Virus record (IMG/VR): IMGVR_UViG_2619619135_000002
Strand: one strand, 5' to 3'
Length of the DNA: 45,104 nt
From: a virus
Taxonomy: Duplodnaviria > Heunggongvirae > Uroviricota > Caudoviricetes
Positions 28,111 through 40,348 of the stretch are shown piece by piece. The translations under genes and the position numbers were made by a program. The notes under the pieces are model-generated. The model did not search any database. It was given only the letters and a program-made list of their open reading frames with translations, and was not told where the DNA came from. Position 1 is the first letter of the stretch, and the number at the start of each line of letters is the position of its first letter.

Positions 28111-28512
28111 TTATCGATACAGATAAGCCATCCCTATCCCGTGCAATACCGCCCGTTTAATATTCTCAAACTCATCTTCCGCAATCATAGGAACAATATA
28201 ATTTCGTCCCTCCCAGGTTCTGGTTTTTATGCGATCCAGTCGGCTCAATGAAACCGTCATCAACATGTCACATTTTACCCAGCAAGTAATATGCTCATTA
28301 CCAGGTATGGGGTTTTCTGATAACTCATGATGGCAATCTCTGCGAGGGAGCGGTTCAGTAGTGCTTATTGGTACCACTGTTACCAATTGATTGTTGTGCC
28401 TGTTTCTGGACACGACCACCACTGGCCTGACCTTGACTATTTCCGGAACAACCATTCCCCGAAAATCACACATTAAAACAGAACGAACAGACGGCTGATA
28501 CTTTAATACCAT
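28111..28512 (-). CDS. PemK/MazF/Kid-fold toxin-like protein (133 aa from the ATG)
   Basis: MVLKYQPSVRSVLMCDFRGMVVPEIVKVRPVVVVSRNRHNNQLVTVVPISTTEP... aligns by eye to the MazF/Kid N-terminal pattern (Y.P.....DF......RP.VV.S....N...V.P..T). No antitoxin-sized ORF immediately upstream. Confidence 0.6.
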   Translation of the reverse strand: MVLKYQPSVRSVLMCDFRGMVVPEIVKVRPVVVVSRNRHNNQLVTVVPISTTEPLPRRDCHHELSENPIPGNEHITCWVKCDMLMTVSLSRLDRIKTRTWEGRNYIVPMIAEDEFENIKRAVLHGIGMAYLYR

Positions 28513-28616
28513 AAATCTCTTTGCCTGATAATGACGACTTGTGAACTCCACTACAAACAAAATGATTCTGCTGAACAGGCAGTTTCGCACTATACATTAT
28601 AACCTGTTAAGCCAAC

Positions 28617-32554: not shown

Positions 32555-35059
32555 TTAAACCGTTTCATCAAGGAAATACTTAGACGAATCATCCTGTTTC
32601 GGTTGATATGTTTTTTTTGCAGAATTAAGAACTCTTCTTAGTTCTTTTCTTAACTCAGGTAAACGCTCCTGAAGAGGGTTAGAACACCATTGTGAAGGCA
32701 ACCCTCTTATAATAGCTTCGGAACAAAGCGGTGAAATAAGTTTTTCCATTTGATAATAGAAAGTTTTTGCTCGACTTACACGCATTGTGATCCTTTTTAT
32801 TACATCTCTTTCAGACTCAATTCTAGCACTCAGATCTCTTAATCTACTCCATACCTTAGCATCAGCAATATATGTATCATAAAGCATACACTCTATAAAC
32901 GTGAAATTACTAATAAGTTCTTTTGCAATATACCCCCCCAGCCGAGAAGGAATGAAACTTGATGAAGCTGTTGGATCTCCGTGATTTACGGTGAACAAAA
33001 ACCTTTTATTGCATAAATCAACGAGAACTCGATGCGTGAAAGAGTCACCTATACCAATTAACCTTAACTTTTCAGTTATTACCGAACCATCGATTTGTCT
33101 GAATCCGGGATCGCTTGCATACGAAACGATAACATTAAGAATGTACAGCCTCAATAATTGCATTTGTGTCACAGCTAAATTCGAATCAAACGGGTTCGCA
33201 ATAGTCGACGTTGACTCGCTATAAGTCAACTCAGTACCCAGTAATATAGCTCTAAATGCCTCATGACGTGGAAGAAGATATCTTCCTTGTTCTCTGAAAA
33301 TTTGTACTGCTTTACCTGGACTCGTATACCCTCTTTCTAAGAACTCACGAGTCATACGTAATGCTAATCGAACATCATCCGTAGCAAGAACTTCAATACG
33401 TGTTCCAATCTCACTTCCCAGCACAGACCCACTAATAATATCGACTAATTGTGATATATCATCCAATACAACTTTAGCGCCATTTTCTGCAATAAAATTT
33501 CCACTTTTATTACTTGTCATATACTTTACTAGTGCAAAGCGTTTTGCAATCACACTACTTATTCTCGGTGGATCTATTTGTATAACTTCAAAATCGAAAG
33601 CATCTATAGCAGGTGAGTTTTTATGTTTGATAAATGTAGACTGCCTCAATGAAAGTACTAAATTTAATGAAAGCGCTCTGGAAATTGAAAATGACTCGGT
33701 AAATATCCGGGACTGGATATCATCAAACTCGATCTGATCAACGTTATCAATAACAAGAAAAAAAGATGTCTCTTTTGTAACGCGACTTATTATTTTATCA
33801 ACATAAGGTTTTATCTTTTTATATTGTTCATATAAAAAATCCGAGATTCTGGTATTTTTTTGATCCTCACTCAATAAAAAAAGAGGTCCTGATTTTATCG
33901 CCTCAATATCTTCTCGAAATGCATCAAATACAAAATCCTTATTACTCAAAACAGGATGCTTATTGATATATTCCAGAATTGATTTATAAATAAAATCGAC
34001 TATTGAACTTTCTGATGGATTATCTAGAAAGTCTATATGAACCCAATGCGGCGTCAAGATATCACATTGATTTGAAAAAAACTCTTTTATTCTAACCTTT
34101 CTCATGTAATGAAGAAATGTTGTTTTACCTGCACCTACAGTCCCAAGTAACAAGATCGCGAGAGGTTTGTCATTCCTGACTTTTATTTTTTTCTTCCCTT
34201 TAACCTGAAACTTATCAACTATTCTTTTTGTATCTTTATCATTAAGCCCTTTTAGTACTTCACCATTCAGCACACTTGAACGCCTACCTATATTCATTCT
34301 AATTTTACTATCGAATCTCATAGTTTCTGGTGTTGAAACATAACATTTATCAAAGGAGTCTTCATCCAAGTAAAGTATAGAATCAGAAAAAGCCAACCTT
34401 AATTCATCAGCAATCAAATGATATATTGGATTATTTGTCTGTGTTCTGTTTTGTTGCGAATAAAAATTTCTTAATTTTCTAAATTCTATTTGATTTTCGA
34501 CGCGACCTAAAAGTGCTGTTTCTAGACTTCCTGATATAACATTTTCACGACTAAGTAAATCATAGAATTCTTGATAATTATCATTTAAGCAATCTTCTAA
34601 CGACCAGAACACAAGCGCTATTGAATCATTAAATTTGACATTGTCATGCCTCTGAGCTGCAAAACATGCCCATACATTTCCATTCGTAGCGACAGCATAA
34701 TCTATACCAAATTTCCTGGCGTAATCTCTAGCTTGTATTATCGCTTCACCAAGATCACTTTGTAAAAAACTATTACTTAGCTTTATTTTTCTTTTTCCTG
34801 GAATTGTACTAAAGCTTGGCCCTGCCTTTTTAGCTTCAACAACAAGAGCAATATTAGCTGTTTTTAGTATATAATCAGCATAAGTTGTCAAACCATCTTC
34901 AGTCACATGCTCTTCTGGTTTTATATCACTATCAGTCCACATCAAGACTTCCTTTAATACCCGATCTATCACTTTTAGTCTTGTGGCTGCTTCATTTGCA
35001 TTTTCTAATTGTAAATGATGATAAGCTGATAATATTTCCGAAATAAATGTTTTCTCCAT
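32555..35059 (-). CDS. Large nuclease-NTPase fusion protein: N-terminal PD-(D/E)xK (HsdR-N/Mrr-like) nuclease domain plus STAND/NACHT-like P-loop NTPase plus alpha-helical C-terminal domain; candidate antiphage defence protein
   Basis: 834 aa. Residues about 60-77 TYADYILKTANIALVVEAKK give the D...E-x-K nuclease signature, followed by ...YAVATNGNVW... Walker A at about 306-313 (GTVGAGKT); Walker B at about 433-442 (FFLVIDNVDQ, a D-x-h-D-E/Q pattern typical of STAND NTPases). The gene and its flanks are visibly AT-rich relative to the rest of the prophage. Confidence 0.6.
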   Translation of the reverse strand: MEKTFISEILSAYHHLQLENANEAATRLKVIDRVLKEVLMWTDSDIKPEEHVTEDGLTTYADYILKTANIALVVEAKKAGPSFSTIPGKRKIKLSNSFLQSDLGEAIIQARDYARKFGIDYAVATNGNVWACFAAQRHDNVKFNDSIALVFWSLEDCLNDNYQEFYDLLSRENVISGSLETALLGRVENQIEFRKLRNFYSQQNRTQTNNPIYHLIADELRLAFSDSILYLDEDSFDKCYVSTPETMRFDSKIRMNIGRRSSVLNGEVLKGLNDKDTKRIVDKFQVKGKKKIKVRNDKPLAILLLGTVGAGKTTFLHYMRKVRIKEFFSNQCDILTPHWVHIDFLDNPSESSIVDFIYKSILEYINKHPVLSNKDFVFDAFREDIEAIKSGPLFLLSEDQKNTRISDFLYEQYKKIKPYVDKIISRVTKETSFFLVIDNVDQIEFDDIQSRIFTESFSISRALSLNLVLSLRQSTFIKHKNSPAIDAFDFEVIQIDPPRISSVIAKRFALVKYMTSNKSGNFIAENGAKVVLDDISQLVDIISGSVLGSEIGTRIEVLATDDVRLALRMTREFLERGYTSPGKAVQIFREQGRYLLPRHEAFRAILLGTELTYSESTSTIANPFDSNLAVTQMQLLRLYILNVIVSYASDPGFRQIDGSVITEKLRLIGIGDSFTHRVLVDLCNKRFLFTVNHGDPTASSSFIPSRLGGYIAKELISNFTFIECMLYDTYIADAKVWSRLRDLSARIESERDVIKRITMRVSRAKTFYYQMEKLISPLCSEAIIRGLPSQWCSNPLQERLPELRKELRRVLNSAKKTYQPKQDDSSKYFLDETV

Positions 35060-35768
35060 AGATTATTCTCTCTATAAAAAATAACGAAAATTTTTCTGAT
35101 TAGTTTTACCGCATTTAGTTACAATAACCTAGCTATGTCAAGTCTGATGTTATCCTAAATTTCATTTTTGTTATATTATCCTCTAATTCTTAAGGCACAC
35201 GTTTGAAAAGCGTCGACTTTCTCCTGTATGCTCTGAAGGTATCATTTACTCTGATTTTTCACGCAGTGTGCCGGATAGTTTTCTGTCAGGATAGAGCCCT
35301 AGATGACACGGATGACCGCTGATGACCTGAATATGATCATGTCGCTAACATTCGCCATGGGTAATATTATTAGCCAATCCCGCCCCATCTGTTCATTCTG
35401 CTCCTGAATGCCCCCCCCCGAAGTCAGCAGACTATGGCCTCGTTGCTGACATGCTCAGAGCCAACTCCTTACCCCCTTACGTAGAAGCAATCTCAGGCAC
35501 CATTAGTGATTACGGTAACCGAGCAGTTGTATTACACCGAACCGACTACCGCTATCATCAACACCTATCTTTGGGGCATAAAAGCGTGGCATAAAGGAAG
35601 CAACTAGGCAGTGATTATGTAAGTACATCTGTAAAACGGACCATCCATTTTAAATATCCTCTGATCCCCCTCAATATCCACCTCTAGCACAAAGCGGACA
35701 ACCACGCTAGCTCTCCCCTGTACCATGAAAATTTCAATTCACATATGTATTAATGCTCTTTAGTCTCT

Positions 35769-36191
35769 TCACTTCAATAAATACTGAGAATCCCCCTGAT
35801 AAAACGACAATATGCGCTGCATAACTTCGCTTTTACGGCACTCACTACAAATTATATTATGATGCCTGTCGTAGCGACGTATTTCTCCATCAGGTAATGA
35901 CCAGATAAGGTCCGGATCAACCGCAGATGGTTTCTTCAGCTTTGCCCTTGAGAGCTTTTTACGGGCATTTTGCCAGTCCTTACGCGCCTGTTCAGACGGG
36001 AATAACCCGTAACCAGAGTTGTATACATCGCCACTGGCAACCAGCTCTCTGGCCAGAACGCTCATCAGATATCTTGTTGCCCCAGTTTTAGCTTCCAGTT
36101 GTTGTAACGTCTCGCGCCCACTCTGGCGTACGAGTTCAACAACCTGCCCTTTAATTTTTTCCCGCTCTTCTTGTGTAAAAACTTTTGCCAC
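35769..36191 (-). CDS. Hypothetical protein (140 aa), possible HTH; occupies the position downstream of the replication initiator
   Basis: ORF of normal GC content with ...TLQQLEAKTGATRYLMSVLAREL...; no firm family assignment. Confidence 0.45.
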   Translation of the reverse strand: MAKVFTQEEREKIKGQVVELVRQSGRETLQQLEAKTGATRYLMSVLARELVASGDVYNSGYGLFPSEQARKDWQNARKKLSRAKLKKPSAVDPDLIWSLPDGEIRRYDRHHNIICSECRKSEVMQRILSFYQGDSQYLLK

Positions 36192-36231: not shown

Positions 36232-37308
36232 TTACCCCCTGAAGCCCGGCGGAATTTCGTTATCCGGTTCAGAAATATGATTCACACAACGCTGGTTGTT
36301 CGTGCCGCTTACCGGGAGCAACCAGGGGTTCTCAAAATTCCTGTCCGGTCCAAAAAACGTCGTCGCTCGCTGAACAAATTCCGTTCCCGTTTTCCCGGTA
36401 GCCGCCAGGTATCTTGCGTAACGCCTCACGCCATCCAGCATGGCCTCTGGTGGCACCCCCTCGCGTAATCTGGCCTTCCAGGCACTGAAAGCGGATTTCT
36501 TCGGGTTTGCTCCGGCACGCAACGGGTACTCCCGCCAGACCTGTTCGAACACATCCGGATAATCCACTCGTCCCACAGACTGCCCGGTGTTTTCCGGGAC
36601 TACCCGATCGGCTTCCCGCTGAATGGCGGAATCGGCTTCAGGCTGCTGCAGTTGGTGTGATTGCTCCGGCCTTGCGATCATCACCTGCTGCACAGCGCCC
36701 GAATCGGCTTTCAGCGCATACGCTGAATCGGCTTCCGGTGTCGTGCCTGCTGGCTGACCAGGATTGACGGTCTGAACATCCCCTGCCTGGTTCGTGGCGT
36801 TTTTTACGCCATGGACCATAGTGTTTTGATCTTCTTGATCTGTATCTTTATCTGTATCTTTATCTGTCGTGACTCGTCGTGACATGTGCGTGACATTTCG
36901 TGACGCGCCGTGACAATCGCCATTTTGTTCCCGCTTTCTTTCCCTCTCTCGCTGCGCCCTCTTGCGCTCTGCAGGAGATTTTGCGGTTTGCGAAATATTG
37001 CCGTTGTCCTCTTTAAGCACCTGGCGTTTTTCCCATCCAGTGATTAAATCACCATCAAGTCCCCGCCCCTGCATCGTCTGCAAAATTGAATCAATTACCT
37101 CTTCTGTCACGTCGAGCGCACTTGCCAAATCTTCTGTCGTGACATCAATGTGACCTCGCGTGACATTTCGTGACGCGCTCACCAGGAGGTGGATATACAC
37201 TGCCATCACTGTTGCAATTGGCTGCCCTGACACCCTGGCAATTGTTCGCCACTTAGGGTCATTTGGCATGTCATGCCATAATCTGAGCCAGGCGTTAGCC
37301 ATACTCAC
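36232..37308 (-). CDS. Replication initiator / replisome organiser (O-like) carrying the origin iterons inside its coding sequence
   Basis: 358 aa; N-terminal wHTH-like MANAWLRLWHDMPNDPKWRTIARVSGQPIATVMAVYIHLL; position downstream of cro/cII-like genes; two CGTGAC iteron arrays lie inside the gene, mirroring lambda O/ori organisation. Confidence 0.65.
   Translation of the reverse strand: MSMANAWLRLWHDMPNDPKWRTIARVSGQPIATVMAVYIHLLVSASRNVTRGHIDVTTEDLASALDVTEEVIDSILQTMQGRGLDGDLITGWEKRQVLKEDNGNISQTAKSPAERKRAQRERERKREQNGDCHGASRNVTHMSRRVTTDKDTDKDTDQEDQNTMVHGVKNATNQAGDVQTVNPGQPAGTTPEADSAYALKADSGAVQQVMIARPEQSHQLQQPEADSAIQREADRVVPENTGQSVGRVDYPDVFEQVWREYPLRAGANPKKSAFSAWKARLREGVPPEAMLDGVRRYARYLAATGKTGTEFVQRATTFFGPDRNFENPWLLPVSGTNNQRCVNHISEPDNEIPPGFRG
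36868..36914. repeat. Iteron array 1: five CGTGAC repeats at 10-11 bp spacing, with adjacent TGTATCTTTATC tandem repeats
   Basis: CGTGAC at 36868, 36878, 36889, 36899 and 36909; preceded by TATCTGTATCTTTATCTGTATCTTTATCTG at 36841-36867. Confidence 0.7.
37138..37174. repeat. Iteron array 2: four (C/T)GTGAC repeats at 10-11 bp spacing
   Basis: CGTGAC at 37138, 37159 and 37169 and TGTGAC at 37149. The 19-mer CGTGACATTTCGTGACGCG is shared with array 1. Confidence 0.7.
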
Positions 37309-37373: not shown

Positions 37374-37799
37374 TCAATGTACTGCCACAGCATTTCCTGC
37401 CGGGCCACCACGGTTCATCTGATTGAAACCGGCGATTGCCACTGCGACAAAATCATCAGCGTCTCTCACCAGTCGCGCCCGCGTCTCCACCAGCTCCCGA
37501 AAATAAGCTGAACTGTGGCTGTGCATTCTGGCCACCAGCAAAGGTGGCATTGCCTTTTCGATCGCTGGTAACAACGCCTGAATTTTTTCAACTGCATCAG
37601 GGGTGTCTTTCTCTACCCAGCGGAAAATTTTCTGGGTATTGCGAGCCAGGGCTTCCGGATGGCTGTCGTCGTACAGTTCCGGGAACGTCATTCCCAGTTC
37701 GAAATACGCTTTGGTAATTTTCGCAGCCGGTACTTTTTCGCCGTCCGGATGCGCCCAGGCATTCATCGCCATGCGGATGTGTTCATGCTTGATTTTCAT
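37374..37799 (-). CDS. cII-position protein, YdaT-like (142 aa from MKIKHEH)
   Basis: Position immediately after the Cro-like gene, as for ydaT after ydaS in Rac-type prophages; N-terminus MKIKHEHIRMAMNAW. Family assignment is from memory and uncertain. Confidence 0.4.
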   Translation of the reverse strand: MKIKHEHIRMAMNAWAHPDGEKVPAAKITKAYFELGMTFPELYDDSHPEALARNTQKIFRWVEKDTPDAVEKIQALLPAIEKAMPPLLVARMHSHSSAYFRELVETRARLVRDADDFVAVAIAGFNQMNRGGPAGNAVAVH

Positions 37800-38025
37800 G
37801 AATCCCCCCTTGGTTAGAAGGCGGATTATGATCAGAACCGGGAATGACAACCGTCGGTATGTGTAACTCATATTTGAGCGCCCCGGCAGTGACTGCCTGA
37901 ATTAGCAACGCCCATTTCCACGGAACCTCTTCCCCCCACATGCTGACTGTGGTTTTTGACGTTCCTAGAGCTGCGGCTGTTTTAACAACTCCGCCAAAAT
38001 AGCCTAATACTTCTGATTTTTTCAT
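37783..38025 (-). CDS. Cro/YdaS-like HTH regulator (80 aa from MKKSEV)
   Basis: GGAG SD before ATG; ...VKTAAALGTSKTTVSMW... HTH; divergent from the repressor gene across the operator region. Confidence 0.65.
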   Translation of the reverse strand: MKKSEVLGYFGGVVKTAAALGTSKTTVSMWGEEVPWKWALLIQAVTAGALKYELHIPTVVIPGSDHNPPSNQGGIHENQA

Positions 38026-39208: not shown

Positions 39209-39538
39209 ATGGAATTTAAAGATTTACCAATGCCATTCCAGGAAATGGCAGCGAATATAGTTCATTCTCAATTGGCGACTCTTGACCTGAGTACCGTAGA
39301 AAAAGAAACCATCGATAATATATCCGGTAACGTGCGTCGTGCCTTTATCGGTCTGTACGAAGAGAAGCAACTCTCTGATAACCAGGATTTACATAAAAAA
39401 TACTTCCTGGAATTAATGGACATCATTAATAAGGGGTTTGGCTTGTTAATGGAAAAGAAAGGGATTCGGATAGAACCCCTTGAAAATTGCTTCGTAACAA
39501 GAAGCATCAATTCTTTTGATTCAAAACAAGAGAATTAA
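39209..39538 (+). CDS. Hypothetical protein (109 aa from MEFKD)
   Basis: GAGG 7 nt before the ATG; overlaps the stop of the preceding ORF; lower GC than the structural genes. Confidence 0.45.
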   Translation: MEFKDLPMPFQEMAANIVHSQLATLDLSTVEKETIDNISGNVRRAFIGLYEEKQLSDNQDLHKKYFLELMDIINKGFGLLMEKKGIRIEPLENCFVTRSINSFDSKQEN

Positions 39539-39782
39539 TTACAGATTTAACATGCTCTTTCTCATGATTGAAGCTCTCAGGGTTGAAAGTGCCCGGCTGA
39601 AGCGAGTCGATATAATCAACGAGATTCTTTCGTACCGTTTCATCTTTATTCATGGCAGATGCAAGGTATGAAATTGCTAACAATGTTATATCACTACGCG
39701 CCGCAGCATGCTGTAGTGTTTTATCAAAATCATTAATTTTCCGTATAAGAGAGTTAAGAGTTTCATTGACATCAAACCCCAT
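39507..39782 (-). CDS. Hypothetical protein (91 aa from MGFDVNETL), convergent with the PL-side genes
   Basis: AGGAGG SD 5 nt before the ATG at 39782. The 202-aa listed ORF includes a GC-rich upstream extension judged to be non-coding. Confidence 0.45.
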   Translation of the reverse strand: MGFDVNETLNSLIRKINDFDKTLQHAAARSDITLLAISYLASAMNKDETVRKNLVDYIDSLQPGTFNPESFNHEKEHVKSVINSLVLNQKN

Positions 39783-40348
39783 TTCATCCTCCTGAGGGTT
39801 AGTAATTAAGGAGTTCTCCACGGGTGAGGTGGAGTGCGTGCGCCGGACACGGGTGAGCATCCGGCACTGACAGTTTACTGAAAGGATATCTCCCTGAAAA
39901 GTCAGGGCATAACGCGAAAGCGCACGGCGAAGTTGTTGGTTCATAGATAGCCTGTCGTTAAATTTTCGTCGACCGTGCGCTTCCGGTTGTGGCACTCCGC
40001 GAAATGGCGCGGCGGTAAGTATGGCGGGGTTATTCCTTCCCCGTTGAGGACACCGGGTTGTCAGGTTGACCATACGCTTAAGTGACAACCCCGCTGCAAC
40101 GCCCTCTGTTATCAATTTTCTGGTGACGTTTGGCGGTATCAGTTTTACTCCGTGACTGCTCTGCCGCCCTTTTTAAAGTGAATTTTGTGATGTGGTGAAT
40201 GCGGCTGAGCGCACGCGGAACAGTTAAAACCAAAAACAGTGTTATGGGTGGATTCTCTGTATCCGGCGTTAATTGTTAACTGGTTAACGTCACCTGGAGG
40301 CACCAGGCACCGCATCAACAAAGTTCATTTGTAAAAATGGAGATAATT

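Follow-up and report, generated by a model that had tools for sequence, protein, structure and literature searches.

A putative replication origin embedded in the initiator gene of a lambda-like Escherichia coli prophage

The stretch of DNA analysed here (45,104 nucleotides (nt); virus record IMGVR_UViG_2619619135_000002; in the following called the window) represents a complete lambda-like prophage of E. coli. From its sequence and those of its relatives, we conclude that the vegetative replication origin of this prophage probably lies embedded in the gene of its own initiator protein and is bound by that protein. The gene contains two arrays of short direct repeats (iterons), designated arrays A and B, together with an AT-rich tract and a palindrome. 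The features concerned are located as follows, with lengths of coding regions given in amino acids (aa).

36232-37302, minus strand: replication initiator gene, coding for 356 aa when read from ATG 37302 (the program-made list of open reading frames (ORFs) begins it at GTG 37308, yielding 358 aa)
37138-37174, minus strand: array B, four direct cores (three GTCACG and one GTCACA), spaced by 10/10/11 nt on the coding strand
37106-37111, plus strand: single inverted core that codes for part of DVT, situated 32 nt beyond array B as the gene is read
36868-36914, minus strand: array A, five direct GTCACG cores on the coding strand, spaced by 10/11/10/10 nt, in the part coding for a disordered linker (aa 130-145)
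36819-36867, minus strand: AT-rich tract with a purine-rich coding strand and GATAAAGATACA repeats, encoding TDKDTDKDTDQEDQN; candidate DNA-unwinding element
36788-36818, no strand assigned: imperfect 31-nt palindrome (coding strand TGGTCCATGGCGTAAAAAACGCCACGAACCA), adjoining the AT-rich tract on the side away from the iterons

Two phased repeat arrays within the initiator gene

An original prediction, made from the DNA letters and their ORFs, had described nine CGTGAC or TGTGAC hexamers in two clusters with a periodicity of 10-11 nt inside the coding sequence, and this was confirmed. On the plus strand, the CGTGAC copies of array A start at 36868, 36878, 36889, 36899 and 36909 (steps of 10, 11, 10 and 10 nt), those of array B at 37138, 37149 (TGTGAC), 37159 and 37169 (steps of 11, 10 and 10 nt), and the two clusters of direct copies are separated by 260-270 nt. 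The inverted tenth copy of the core had been overlooked; it occurs at the identical ORF offset (191) in many homologues of the GTCAC type. Read along the coding strand, array B (ORF nt 128-164) is followed after 220 nt by array A (nt 388-434), the AT-rich tract and the palindrome. The cores begin at ORF offsets 128, 138, 148 and 159 in array B and 388, 398, 408, 419 and 429 in array A, thereby hitting reading frames 2, 0, 1, 0 and 1, 2, 0, 2, 0, respectively. Because the period of 10-11 nt puts the cores into all three frames, the hexamers do not simply encode a repeated peptide. The SRNVT repeat that had been read from the translation exists insofar as ASRNVT occurs twice, but no simple peptide repeat underlies the arrays, and SRNVT arises merely as a consequence of the DNA repeats rather than being a feature of its own.

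The hexamer YGTGAC is not enriched by number in the window (51 copies vs. 43 ± 6 in shuffled sequences), and the remaining 41 copies are dispersed outside both arrays. It is the clustering that exceeded all simulations: no hexamer of the window forms a longer in-phase chain (spacing of 9-12 nt) than the five copies of array A, while the chains of YGTGAC reached at most two copies in 300 first-order Markov simulations and those of any hexamer at most three in 60 simulations. Apart from arrays A and B, the same chain scan showed no in-phase hexamer array in the 45-kb window, and an Rfam scan of the region from 35.5 to 38.3 kb returned no match. A match from a promoter scan within array A (GTGACA...GACAAT) was discarded as the repeat itself. 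Directly upstream of array B on the coding strand, we noted a DnaA-box-like sequence (TATATCCAC; 37189-37197, minus strand), which is probably fortuitous because it is not kept in Pseudomonas phage 5399.

Selection acting on DNA rather than on peptide

Comparison of codon usage among homologues indicates that the repeats are selected as DNA and not as peptide. We compared 20 genes of the GTCAC type from different genera (pairwise identity 51-81%, median 60%) at conserved residues whose third codon position falls inside a hexamer (n = 12) or elsewhere (n = 63). The mean codon entropy was 0.18 bit inside the hexamers vs. 1.43 bit elsewhere (Mann-Whitney p = 3.6e-7), as expected from purifying selection at the DNA level. 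In array B, the frozen codons are those of V47 (GTC, 20/20), T48 (ACG, 20/20), G50 (GGT, 20/20), H51 (CAC, 19/19) and V54 (GTC, 20/20), and in array A those of S141 (TCA, 20/20) and V144 (GTC, 20/20). Pseudomonas phage 5399, whose N-terminal domain is 69% identical to that of the E. coli protein, has retained four cores in each array, spaced by 10/10/11 nt in array B and by 10/10/10 nt in array A, although the peptide encoded by array A differs (DDVTQCHAESRNVTL vs. DCHGASRNVTHMSRRVTT). The original prediction had named homologues that keep the peptide without the nucleotide repeats as the finding that would reduce the repeats to a coding constraint; we observed the converse, in that repeats and spacing are kept where the peptide differs, synonymous sites are frozen and the cores of both arrays change together from lineage to lineage, which speaks for iterons.

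Comparative anatomy of the arrays

Aligning homologues of the N-terminal domain (N-domain) from bacterial genomes, with one genome taken per species, yielded 54 loci with 51 non-redundant genes from Gamma-, Beta- and Alphaproteobacteria and Acidobacteria. An in-phase array A with at least three copies was present in 40 of these 51 genes, and 28 of the 40 also contained an array B with at least three copies, whose core was identical to that of array A in every case (28/28). A motif-blind search of each array separately recovered the same core in both. The core itself follows the clade of the N-domain and reads GTCAC(G), GTAAC(G), (C)GAACG(C) or CTACG. Judging from these alignments, such co-variation of seven to nine sites, distributed over two arrays 220-350 nt apart, with the clade of the DNA-binding domain is how co-evolution of iterons and initiator would be expected to look, and array A together with the AT-rich tract appears as the near-constant core of the origin.

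Some loci deviate in the make-up of their arrays. In Escherichia albertii NBRC 107761 (L004:3001-4053), array B has six cores compared to the four described here, and the two additional units amount to 21 nt, which keeps the frame and inserts seven residues (TCHGVSL) into the loop of the winged-helix domain. Array B thus seems to evolve by whole repeat units, its copy number shifting within the coding sequence of a folded domain. In Erwinia phyllosphaerae (L025:3001-3990), both arrays contain cores overlapping at 5-nt spacing (GTCACGTCACGTCAC) in addition to copies spaced by 10 nt, which makes for an unusually compact set of iterons. An unrelated initiator N-domain (MRDYA..FWLG...) is accompanied by two GGGGCTT arrays with 11-nt spacing, as seen in Klebsiella phage ST974-OXA48phi18.2 (L142:925-1833) and in the Shigella phage 75/02 Stx of type Eru4 (L138:1997-3085). 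One of these arrays lies in the part coding for the N-domain (ORF nt ~171-199), the other just before a purine-rich linker (nt ~442-453), and the second array is inverted in phage 75/02.

AT-rich tract and palindrome

The AT-rich tract extends over about 50 nt with a GC content of 0.28 (36818-36867), compared to 0.51 for the entire window. Tandem Repeats Finder detected a 12-nt tandem repeat in it (TCTTTATCTGTA, 2.9 copies, 36833-36867) coding for TDKDTDKDTD, which bears out the tandem repeat and linker peptide originally read from the sequence. The first codons of the tract are frozen among the GTCAC-type genes (GAT in 19/19, AAA in 18/19). In the homologues, array A is mostly followed by an equivalent tract with an AT content of 0.6-0.85 and a purine content of 0.7-0.9, such as AGATAAAGATAAAGA, GATACAGATACA or AGAAGAGA, and even lineages whose C-terminal domains (C-domains) are of quite another kind have AT/purine-rich tracts behind array A. 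We found no AT-rich tract after array B. Two GATC (Dam) sites are present in the AT-rich tract, at 36828-36840 of the window.

The palindrome had escaped notice before. As single-stranded DNA, it is predicted to fold into a hairpin of -8.7 kcal/mol (z = -3.3). A block consisting of the end of the AT-rich tract and the palindrome (AAGATCAAAACAC..CTGGTYCATGGCGWAAAAANCGCC) is kept in six genes with four unrelated N-terminal modules, namely the gene described here, the GTAAC-type genes of L143, L144 and L145, that of the Eru4 Stx phage 75/02 (L138) and that of L146, which represents the fourth type. The pair closing the loop shows a compensatory exchange from T/A to A/T (GCGT...ACGC here vs. GCGA...TCGC in phage 75/02), and the two stem codons pairing with each other, GGC and GCC, do not vary across the genes bearing the block. 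The peptide encoded by the palindrome (N-T-L/M-V-H-G-x-K) is set within an otherwise unconserved disordered linker. The sequence AAGATCAAAACAC beside the palindrome is kept in 5 of 6 related genes. By these comparisons, the iterons move together with the N-domain and the AT-rich tract and palindrome with the C-domain, and the joint between the modules is located in the AT-rich tract.

The initiator protein

We took the ATG at 37302 (MANAW...) rather than the GTG at 37308 as the most likely true start of the protein because every homologue begins with MANxW. The whole protein matches PHROG 3729 ("replication initiation protein", E = 1.9e-256), is named "phage replisome organizer" by NCBI and shares 98.6% identity with the "DNA replication protein O" from Escherichia phage vB_EcoS-689R5, an isolated phage which also has an identical junction between rep and the following DUF977 gene. 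Its two halves match separate PHROG families, which indicates a modular protein. An AlphaFold2 model built with a 60-sequence alignment divides it into the following parts.

37024-37302, minus strand: N-terminal winged-helix domain (aa 1-93), presumed iteron-binding domain
36925-36975, minus strand: conserved basic helix (aa 110-126, AERKRAQRERERKRE), predicted by AlphaFold2
36571-36921, minus strand: disordered inter-domain linker (aa 128-244), holding array A, the AT-rich tract and the palindrome
36307-36570, minus strand: helical C-terminal domain (aa 245-332), occurring as a shuffled module after four or more different N-domains
36235-36291, minus strand: C-terminal tail RCVNHISEPDNEIPPGFRG, a motif shared with the C-terminus of the host primosomal protein DnaT

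The N-domain was modelled with five helices and a beta wing at a predicted local distance difference test score (pLDDT) of 86-93, and its fold is a winged helix like that of the N-terminal domain of DnaD, whereas the linker scored below 50. In the basic helix and its surroundings, A107, K108, R113, K114, R115, R118 and R120 are invariant in 18 aligned homologues. The part encoded by array B comprises the last residues of helix 3 and the next loop of the winged-helix domain (aa 43-55, ASRNVTRGHIDVT). Because the arrays, the AT-rich tract and the palindrome thus code either for the linker or for a helix end and loop, the protein can tolerate the constraint on its DNA. A mutual-information scan for specificity residues pointed almost solely to the loop encoded by array B, a result that is circular because the loop residues and array B share dual coding.

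No family of Pfam or NCBIfam matched the whole protein above threshold. The N-terminal families of phage replisome organisers scored below their cut-offs, PF09681 with 16.6 bits vs. 23.3 (aligning residues 5-123 to positions 1-119 of 121) and TIGR01714 with 16.2 vs. 49.8, and neither of them was matched by any of 18 homologues at E ≤ 0.01. The Pfam search also gave no match to DUF1376 in the protein, and none to Phage_rep_O even with the isolated N-domain at E values up to 10.

Helicase loading and the DnaT-type tail

The last ~20 residues of the protein are nearly identical to those of DnaT (RCVNHISEPDNEIPPGFRG here vs. RDVNTVSEPDSQIPPGFRG). Residues 333-356 (335-358 of the 358-aa ORF) align with the last 24 residues of DnaT, and a phmmer search against PDB returned 6aep_A (E = 0.0033), 2ru8_A and 9zbt_D in tail-to-tail alignments. 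The tail also matches positions 156-179 of the NCBIfam DnaT family NF002770 and contains the motif ...SEPDxxIPPGFRG. By contrast with the tail, the body of the C-domain has no detectable relation to the three-helix bundle of DnaT (PF17948; hhalign probability 0.2%), and DnaT's N-terminal oligomerisation domain is absent, the N-terminus being a winged helix of a different family.

A gene for a DnaC-like protein (IstB_IS21) lies directly downstream of the relatives of the C-domain in phage 75/02, Klebsiella phage ST974, L143, L144, L145 and L146. Among the C-domain relatives examined, only SfV (orf39) and phiSTEC1575, which has a near-identical gene, are without such a neighbour. The partners encoded after homologues of the N-domain vary and comprise DnaB-like helicases, DnaC-like ATPases and others. 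Some, beside distant homologues, are proteins of 190-250 aa that look P-like as judged by their N-terminal sequence alone, while partners of ~600 aa were taken as primase-helicases, the one of P. aeruginosa being annotated as "DnaB-like helicase C-terminal domain-containing protein". From this distribution, the C-domain and tail may engage a DnaC-type loader or the primosome and use the host DnaC in the prophage described here; we give this host-recruitment step about an even chance at best.

In the E. coli variants P0015, P0018, P0020, P0022, P0027 and P0028, the N-domain is 83-85% identical to that described here and is fused to a true DnaT-like domain binding single-stranded DNA (PF17948; ...GKFSMTTVWQPSPDFRQRAAVWGMALPEP...). 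Within E. coli alone, one putative origin-binding module thus occurs together with several alternative modules for host recruitment.

Proposed mode of initiation

The following sequence of events would account for the anatomy described. Anatomy, DNA-level selection, co-variation of the cores and the fold class of the N-domain are shown by the data above; the steps from core binding to theta replication are drawn by analogy with lambda and SPP1 (PMC6316719). After derepression, transcription would proceed through cro, cII and rep, and the initiator would be made. Its winged-helix N-domain would bind the GTCACG cores with one protomer per helical turn. Because the spacing of 10-11 bp puts the cores of each array on one face of the helix, a phased oligomer would assemble on that face, analogous to the O-some of lambda, and arrays A and B might be bridged by oligomerisation of the N-domain or the basic helix. 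The oligomer would destabilise the ~50-bp AT-rich, strand-asymmetric tract, with the palindrome serving as a boundary or auxiliary element. The C-domain and the DnaT-type tail would then bring in host DnaB-DnaC, possibly through the PriA/PriB/DnaT route, and theta replication would follow. Array B, 260 bp upstream, would present a second site for the same protein and act either in a looped or wrapped complex or in regulation.

Counter-evidence and alternative explanations

Several observations speak against an origin of this design. Array B is absent in 12 of the 40 lineages with array A (e.g., L035, L036, L043, L054 and L055), and five of the 51 loci (L027, L028, L042, L044 and L046) show no obvious array. 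The distance between the arrays is not constant (221-350 nt across the loci), and a conserved helical phase between them had to be rejected, as the first core of B and the last core of A are 280, 289 or 301 nt apart among the GTCAC types. Co-variation of the cores with the N-domain clade could partly reflect co-inheritance because the arrays lie inside the gene. Within the winged helix, the helix that usually serves for recognition (TEEVIDSILQTMQ) has an acidic and hydrophobic character rarely seen where bases are contacted; another DNA-contacting surface has therefore to be considered, for which the basic segment at the N-terminus, the wing, the basic helix and the array-B loop are candidates. 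Finally, our literature search returned no origin, iteron, binding, footprinting or replication data for this initiator family, and the structural literature on DnaT does not state a contact of its extreme C-terminal tail.

The first of these points bears on the notion of a split origin put forward in the original prediction. Its two arrays are real and share the same core, but as 12 of the 40 lineages lack array B, the split role is only putative, and array B may be auxiliary or regulatory. The origin might then consist of array A, the AT-rich tract and the palindrome only, with array B as a control element for the same protein, an explanation which we consider possible but rather doubtful. 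Such an element could autoregulate rep at the level of translation or transcription, mediate handcuffing or arrest forks (cf. SPP1 oriR and P4 crr). The lineages devoid of array B, the missing AT-rich tract behind it and the variable distance and phase between the arrays would agree with this role, as would the proposal that SPP1 gp38 stalls replication forks at its second site (PMC6316719). On the other hand, selection at the DNA level acts on array B just as on array A, the core is the same in 28/28 genes, and the recurrence of two arrays in the unrelated family of Klebsiella phage ST974 and phage 75/02 suggests that the arrays work as a pair. Selection, core identity and this recurrence do not separate a role of array B in initiation from one in control.

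It seems very unlikely that the arrays bind another factor, such as host DnaA, IHF or SeqA or phage Cro or CII, or are purely regulatory, with the origin being located elsewhere. The acidic recognition helix, the GATC sites in the AT-rich tract and the DnaA-box-like TATATCCAC beside array B would be in line with this, and binding of the arrays by the initiator is putative. However, the core follows the N-domain clade while the neighbouring genes and C-domains are shuffled, and in hosts as far apart as Enterobacteria and Acidobacteria the arrays remain linked to the N-domain; four different cores would not be explained by a host factor that is conserved. Furthermore, the window contains no other in-phase array, the DnaA-box-like site is not kept in phage 5399, and the order of iterons, AT-rich tract and palindrome is the classical layout of an origin.

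Even less probable is the explanation that the AT-rich tract and palindrome are kept mainly as a recombination joint for exchanging N- and C-modules between phages. The module shuffling is evident, and the block indeed sits between four unrelated N-modules and one C-module. Patches of homology from recent exchange would nevertheless lack the compensatory change in the stem, frozen GGC and GCC codons would not be expected across diverged genes, and AT/purine-rich tracts follow array A also beside quite different C-domains; moreover, the roles as joint and as origin are not exclusive. The idea that the repeats are a mere coding constraint for SRNVT, VT or TDKD peptides with incidental nucleotide periodicity could appeal to the two copies of ASRNVT and to the invariance of S134, R135, V144, T145 and D147 in the protein alignment, but it is already contradicted by a 10-11 nt period running through three frames, which cannot come from a peptide repeat, by the location of these peptides in a loop and a disordered linker, by the freezing of synonymous codons being limited to the hexamers, by the diverged array-A peptide of phage 5399 with retained hexamers and spacing, and by other clades that change the peptide together with the DNA core.

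Comparison with known replication systems

An initiator-encoded origin bound by its own product thus represents the explanation that we prefer, and it has close precedents. The origin of lambda lies inside the O gene and consists of iterons, an AT-rich strand-asymmetric tract and a palindrome; the iterons number four, are each about 19 bp long and show internal dyad symmetry. The prophage shares with it the position of the origin in the initiator gene, between a DNA-binding N-terminal part and a loader-recruiting C-terminal part, the order of iterons, AT-rich tract and palindrome, and the location of the gene behind cro and cII in the early-right operon and before a ren-like gene. The O/ori logic with a different repeat unit, as originally suggested, is thereby upheld, with the AT-rich tract located in the disordered linker. 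Unlike in lambda, the protein has no Phage_rep_O domain and ends in a DnaT-type tail, no P gene is present, the core is an asymmetric unit of 5-6 bp repeated every 10-11 bp, and a second array is located 260 bp upstream. For Stx phages, work on O and ori is available (PMC7466680).

In Bacillus phage SPP1, the replisome organiser gp38 binds direct repeats beside an AT-rich unwinding element inside its own gene (oriL) and also a second, separate repeat region, oriR (PMC6316719). The prophage resembles the gp38/oriL/oriR system in having repeats in direct orientation as well as an AT-rich element within the initiator gene and two separate repeat regions, and the protein shows a weak end-to-end match to the Pfam family Phage_rep_org_N, which stays below the Pfam cut-off. 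The second site of SPP1 is ~13 kb away, compared to 260 bp within the same gene here, and SPP1, in contrast to the prophage, encodes its own loader (gp39) and DnaB-type helicase (gp40).

The Rac prophage of E. coli K-12 possesses a functional origin, oriJ (PMC3945230; PMC11014345). Its ydaU gene (L137:3120-3977) is located after ydaS and ydaT and before a DUF977 gene, as is the gene described here, and contains the same AT-rich tract (AAAGATACAGATAAAGAT) in the linker and the same type of DnaT-like tail (VNTVSLPDSAIPPGFRG) at the end of its product. YdaU differs in its DUF1376 N-domain, in a different type of C-domain and in being followed by the DnaC-like YdaV, and the repeats upstream of its AT-rich tract are of another kind, imperfect and similar to TGTTCAAACA or TGTTTGAACA. 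From this resemblance, the ydaU linker is a plausible candidate for the position of oriJ.

Among the Eru types of Stx phages, only Eru4 (phage 75/02) is related, through its C-domain, which is 65% identical over residues 160-358; the purine-rich tract with the palindrome block and the tail are shared as well. Phage 75/02 differs by its unrelated N-domain, its GGGGCTT-type repeats and the DnaC-like gene that comes next. The literature on the Eru classification of Stx phages (including PMC8951638) mentions no origins, iterons or DnaT.

The relatives with an initiator gene beside a DnaC-like gene are reminiscent of dnaT, which lies beside dnaC. A likeness to DnaD, a protein of replication initiation and restart in Firmicutes, is expressed in the PHROG label "DnaD-like helicase loader", but the protein has no sequence match to the DnaD families in Pfam or NCBIfam, and to our knowledge DnaD is not an iteron-binding initiator encoding its own origin. 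By analogy, the system appears to work like ori-lambda and SPP1 oriL within a separate initiator family, as a variation on a well-known theme. Its distinctive features are the short asymmetric core at one helical turn, the co-varying array in the region coding for the DNA-binding domain and the loader-less, DnaT-tailed module.

Genomic context and distribution

Genes of the prophage code for an integrase, a RecE-like exonuclease, an S24 cI-type repressor and P22-Cro-like and YdaT/CII-like proteins. The initiator gene is followed by a DUF977/Ren-like gene and the gene of an 834-aa protein, and further genes code for an HNH endonuclease, RusA, Q, a methyltransferase, endolysin, terminase, portal, head proteins, tape measure protein, J and tail fibres. 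Besides the initiator gene, the ORFs scanned thus belong to immunity, recombination, the nin region, lysis and structure. The direct neighbours of the initiator gene are the following.

35769-36191, minus strand: DUF977/Ren-like gene (140 aa; Pfam PF06163, E = 3e-30; PHROG 142, "Ren-like exclusion protein")
37374-37871, minus strand: YdaT/CII-like gene, upstream of the initiator gene (Pfam PF06254; PHROG 163, "CII-like")

The true start of the YdaT/CII-like gene is probably an internal ATG near 37799; phage vB_EcoS-689R5 carries an annotated cII of 141 aa. As predicted, no P or DnaC-like gene follows the initiator gene, its 140-aa neighbour being DUF977/Ren-like by both Pfam and PHROG. Because no helicase, primase or loader turned up among the window ORFs scanned, the initiator gene represents the sole recognisable replication function. 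The 1.3-kb region around it matches 4015 of 5426 complete E. coli genomes and reaches a query coverage of at least 80% in 1646 of them (~30%).

Other genes of the window attracted our attention. The 834-aa protein (32555-35059, minus strand), encoded between DUF977 and the nin-type genes, contains a P-loop (GAGKT motif), matches PHROG 14719 (unknown function) end to end and shows a weak PADLOC match to a methyl-directed type II restriction enzyme (E = 3e-4). Its gene apparently lies in a stretch of low GC content, although the values of 0.38-0.45 were measured for 35500-35900 only, just outside the gene, and it looks like a moron or candidate defence gene. A 202-aa ORF (39507-40115, minus strand) in the interval between repressor and exonuclease has no PHROG match, and a 159-aa protein beside Q (28111-28590, minus strand) has a weak MazF-like match.

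In P. aeruginosa, two records of 50.9 kb, CP137943.1 (L147) and CP124671.1, were deposited as circular, non-mobilizable plasmids. The lambdoid early region of CP137943.1 comprises genes for an S24 repressor, CII, a member of the initiator family, a 609-aa DnaB-like helicase, NinB and NinG; CP124671.1 is identical in size and match, the gene content having been seen in CP137943.1 alone. These circular records indicate that elements with the module occur as extrachromosomal circles. Taken as a whole, our plasmid search returned two circular phage genomes, large plasmids that carry prophages and chromosomes labelled wrongly as plasmids, and no minimal natural replicon.

Implications

With the putative origin, a plausible mode of action is assigned to a module present in ~30% of the complete E. 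coli genomes (at a query coverage of at least 80%), whose relatives reside in prophages and phages from four or more classes of bacteria. These relatives number roughly 550 on viral contigs and 720 among proteins. Its C-domain has relatives in Eru4 phages, which are Stx-converting and in which toxin production is driven by phage replication. The combination of a DnaT-type tail with DnaC-like neighbours offers a genetic route to the role of the tail in DnaT itself, which recent preprimosome structures leave unexplained. Since one fold is associated with GTCAC, GTAAC, GAACG or CTACG cores, the family could supply natural data for a recognition code or for orthogonal replicons. For annotation, the case advises caution, as what looks like a conserved "peptide motif" in the disordered linker of a phage initiator can merely reflect a DNA element.

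A more far-reaching reading, which we consider unlikely to hold as a whole, joins a loader-free initiator, a self-referential code and the two arrays as a general design. In its first part, the initiator would be a sequence-specific stand-in for DnaT anchored at the iterons. The tail would then plug the phage origin into the host DnaB-DnaC or PriA/PriB/DnaT restart machinery, the sister variants would do the same through a complete DnaT-like domain, and a lambdoid phage would replicate with a single phage-encoded protein and no loader. In the second part, the array-B loop, which reads SRNVTRGH in GTCAC types and NATERGRT in GAACG types, may contact the core itself, in which case a change of iteron specificity would be written simultaneously in the binding site and the binding surface. 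The general design of such origins would be one array in the region coding for the DNA-binding domain and one in that coding for the linker.

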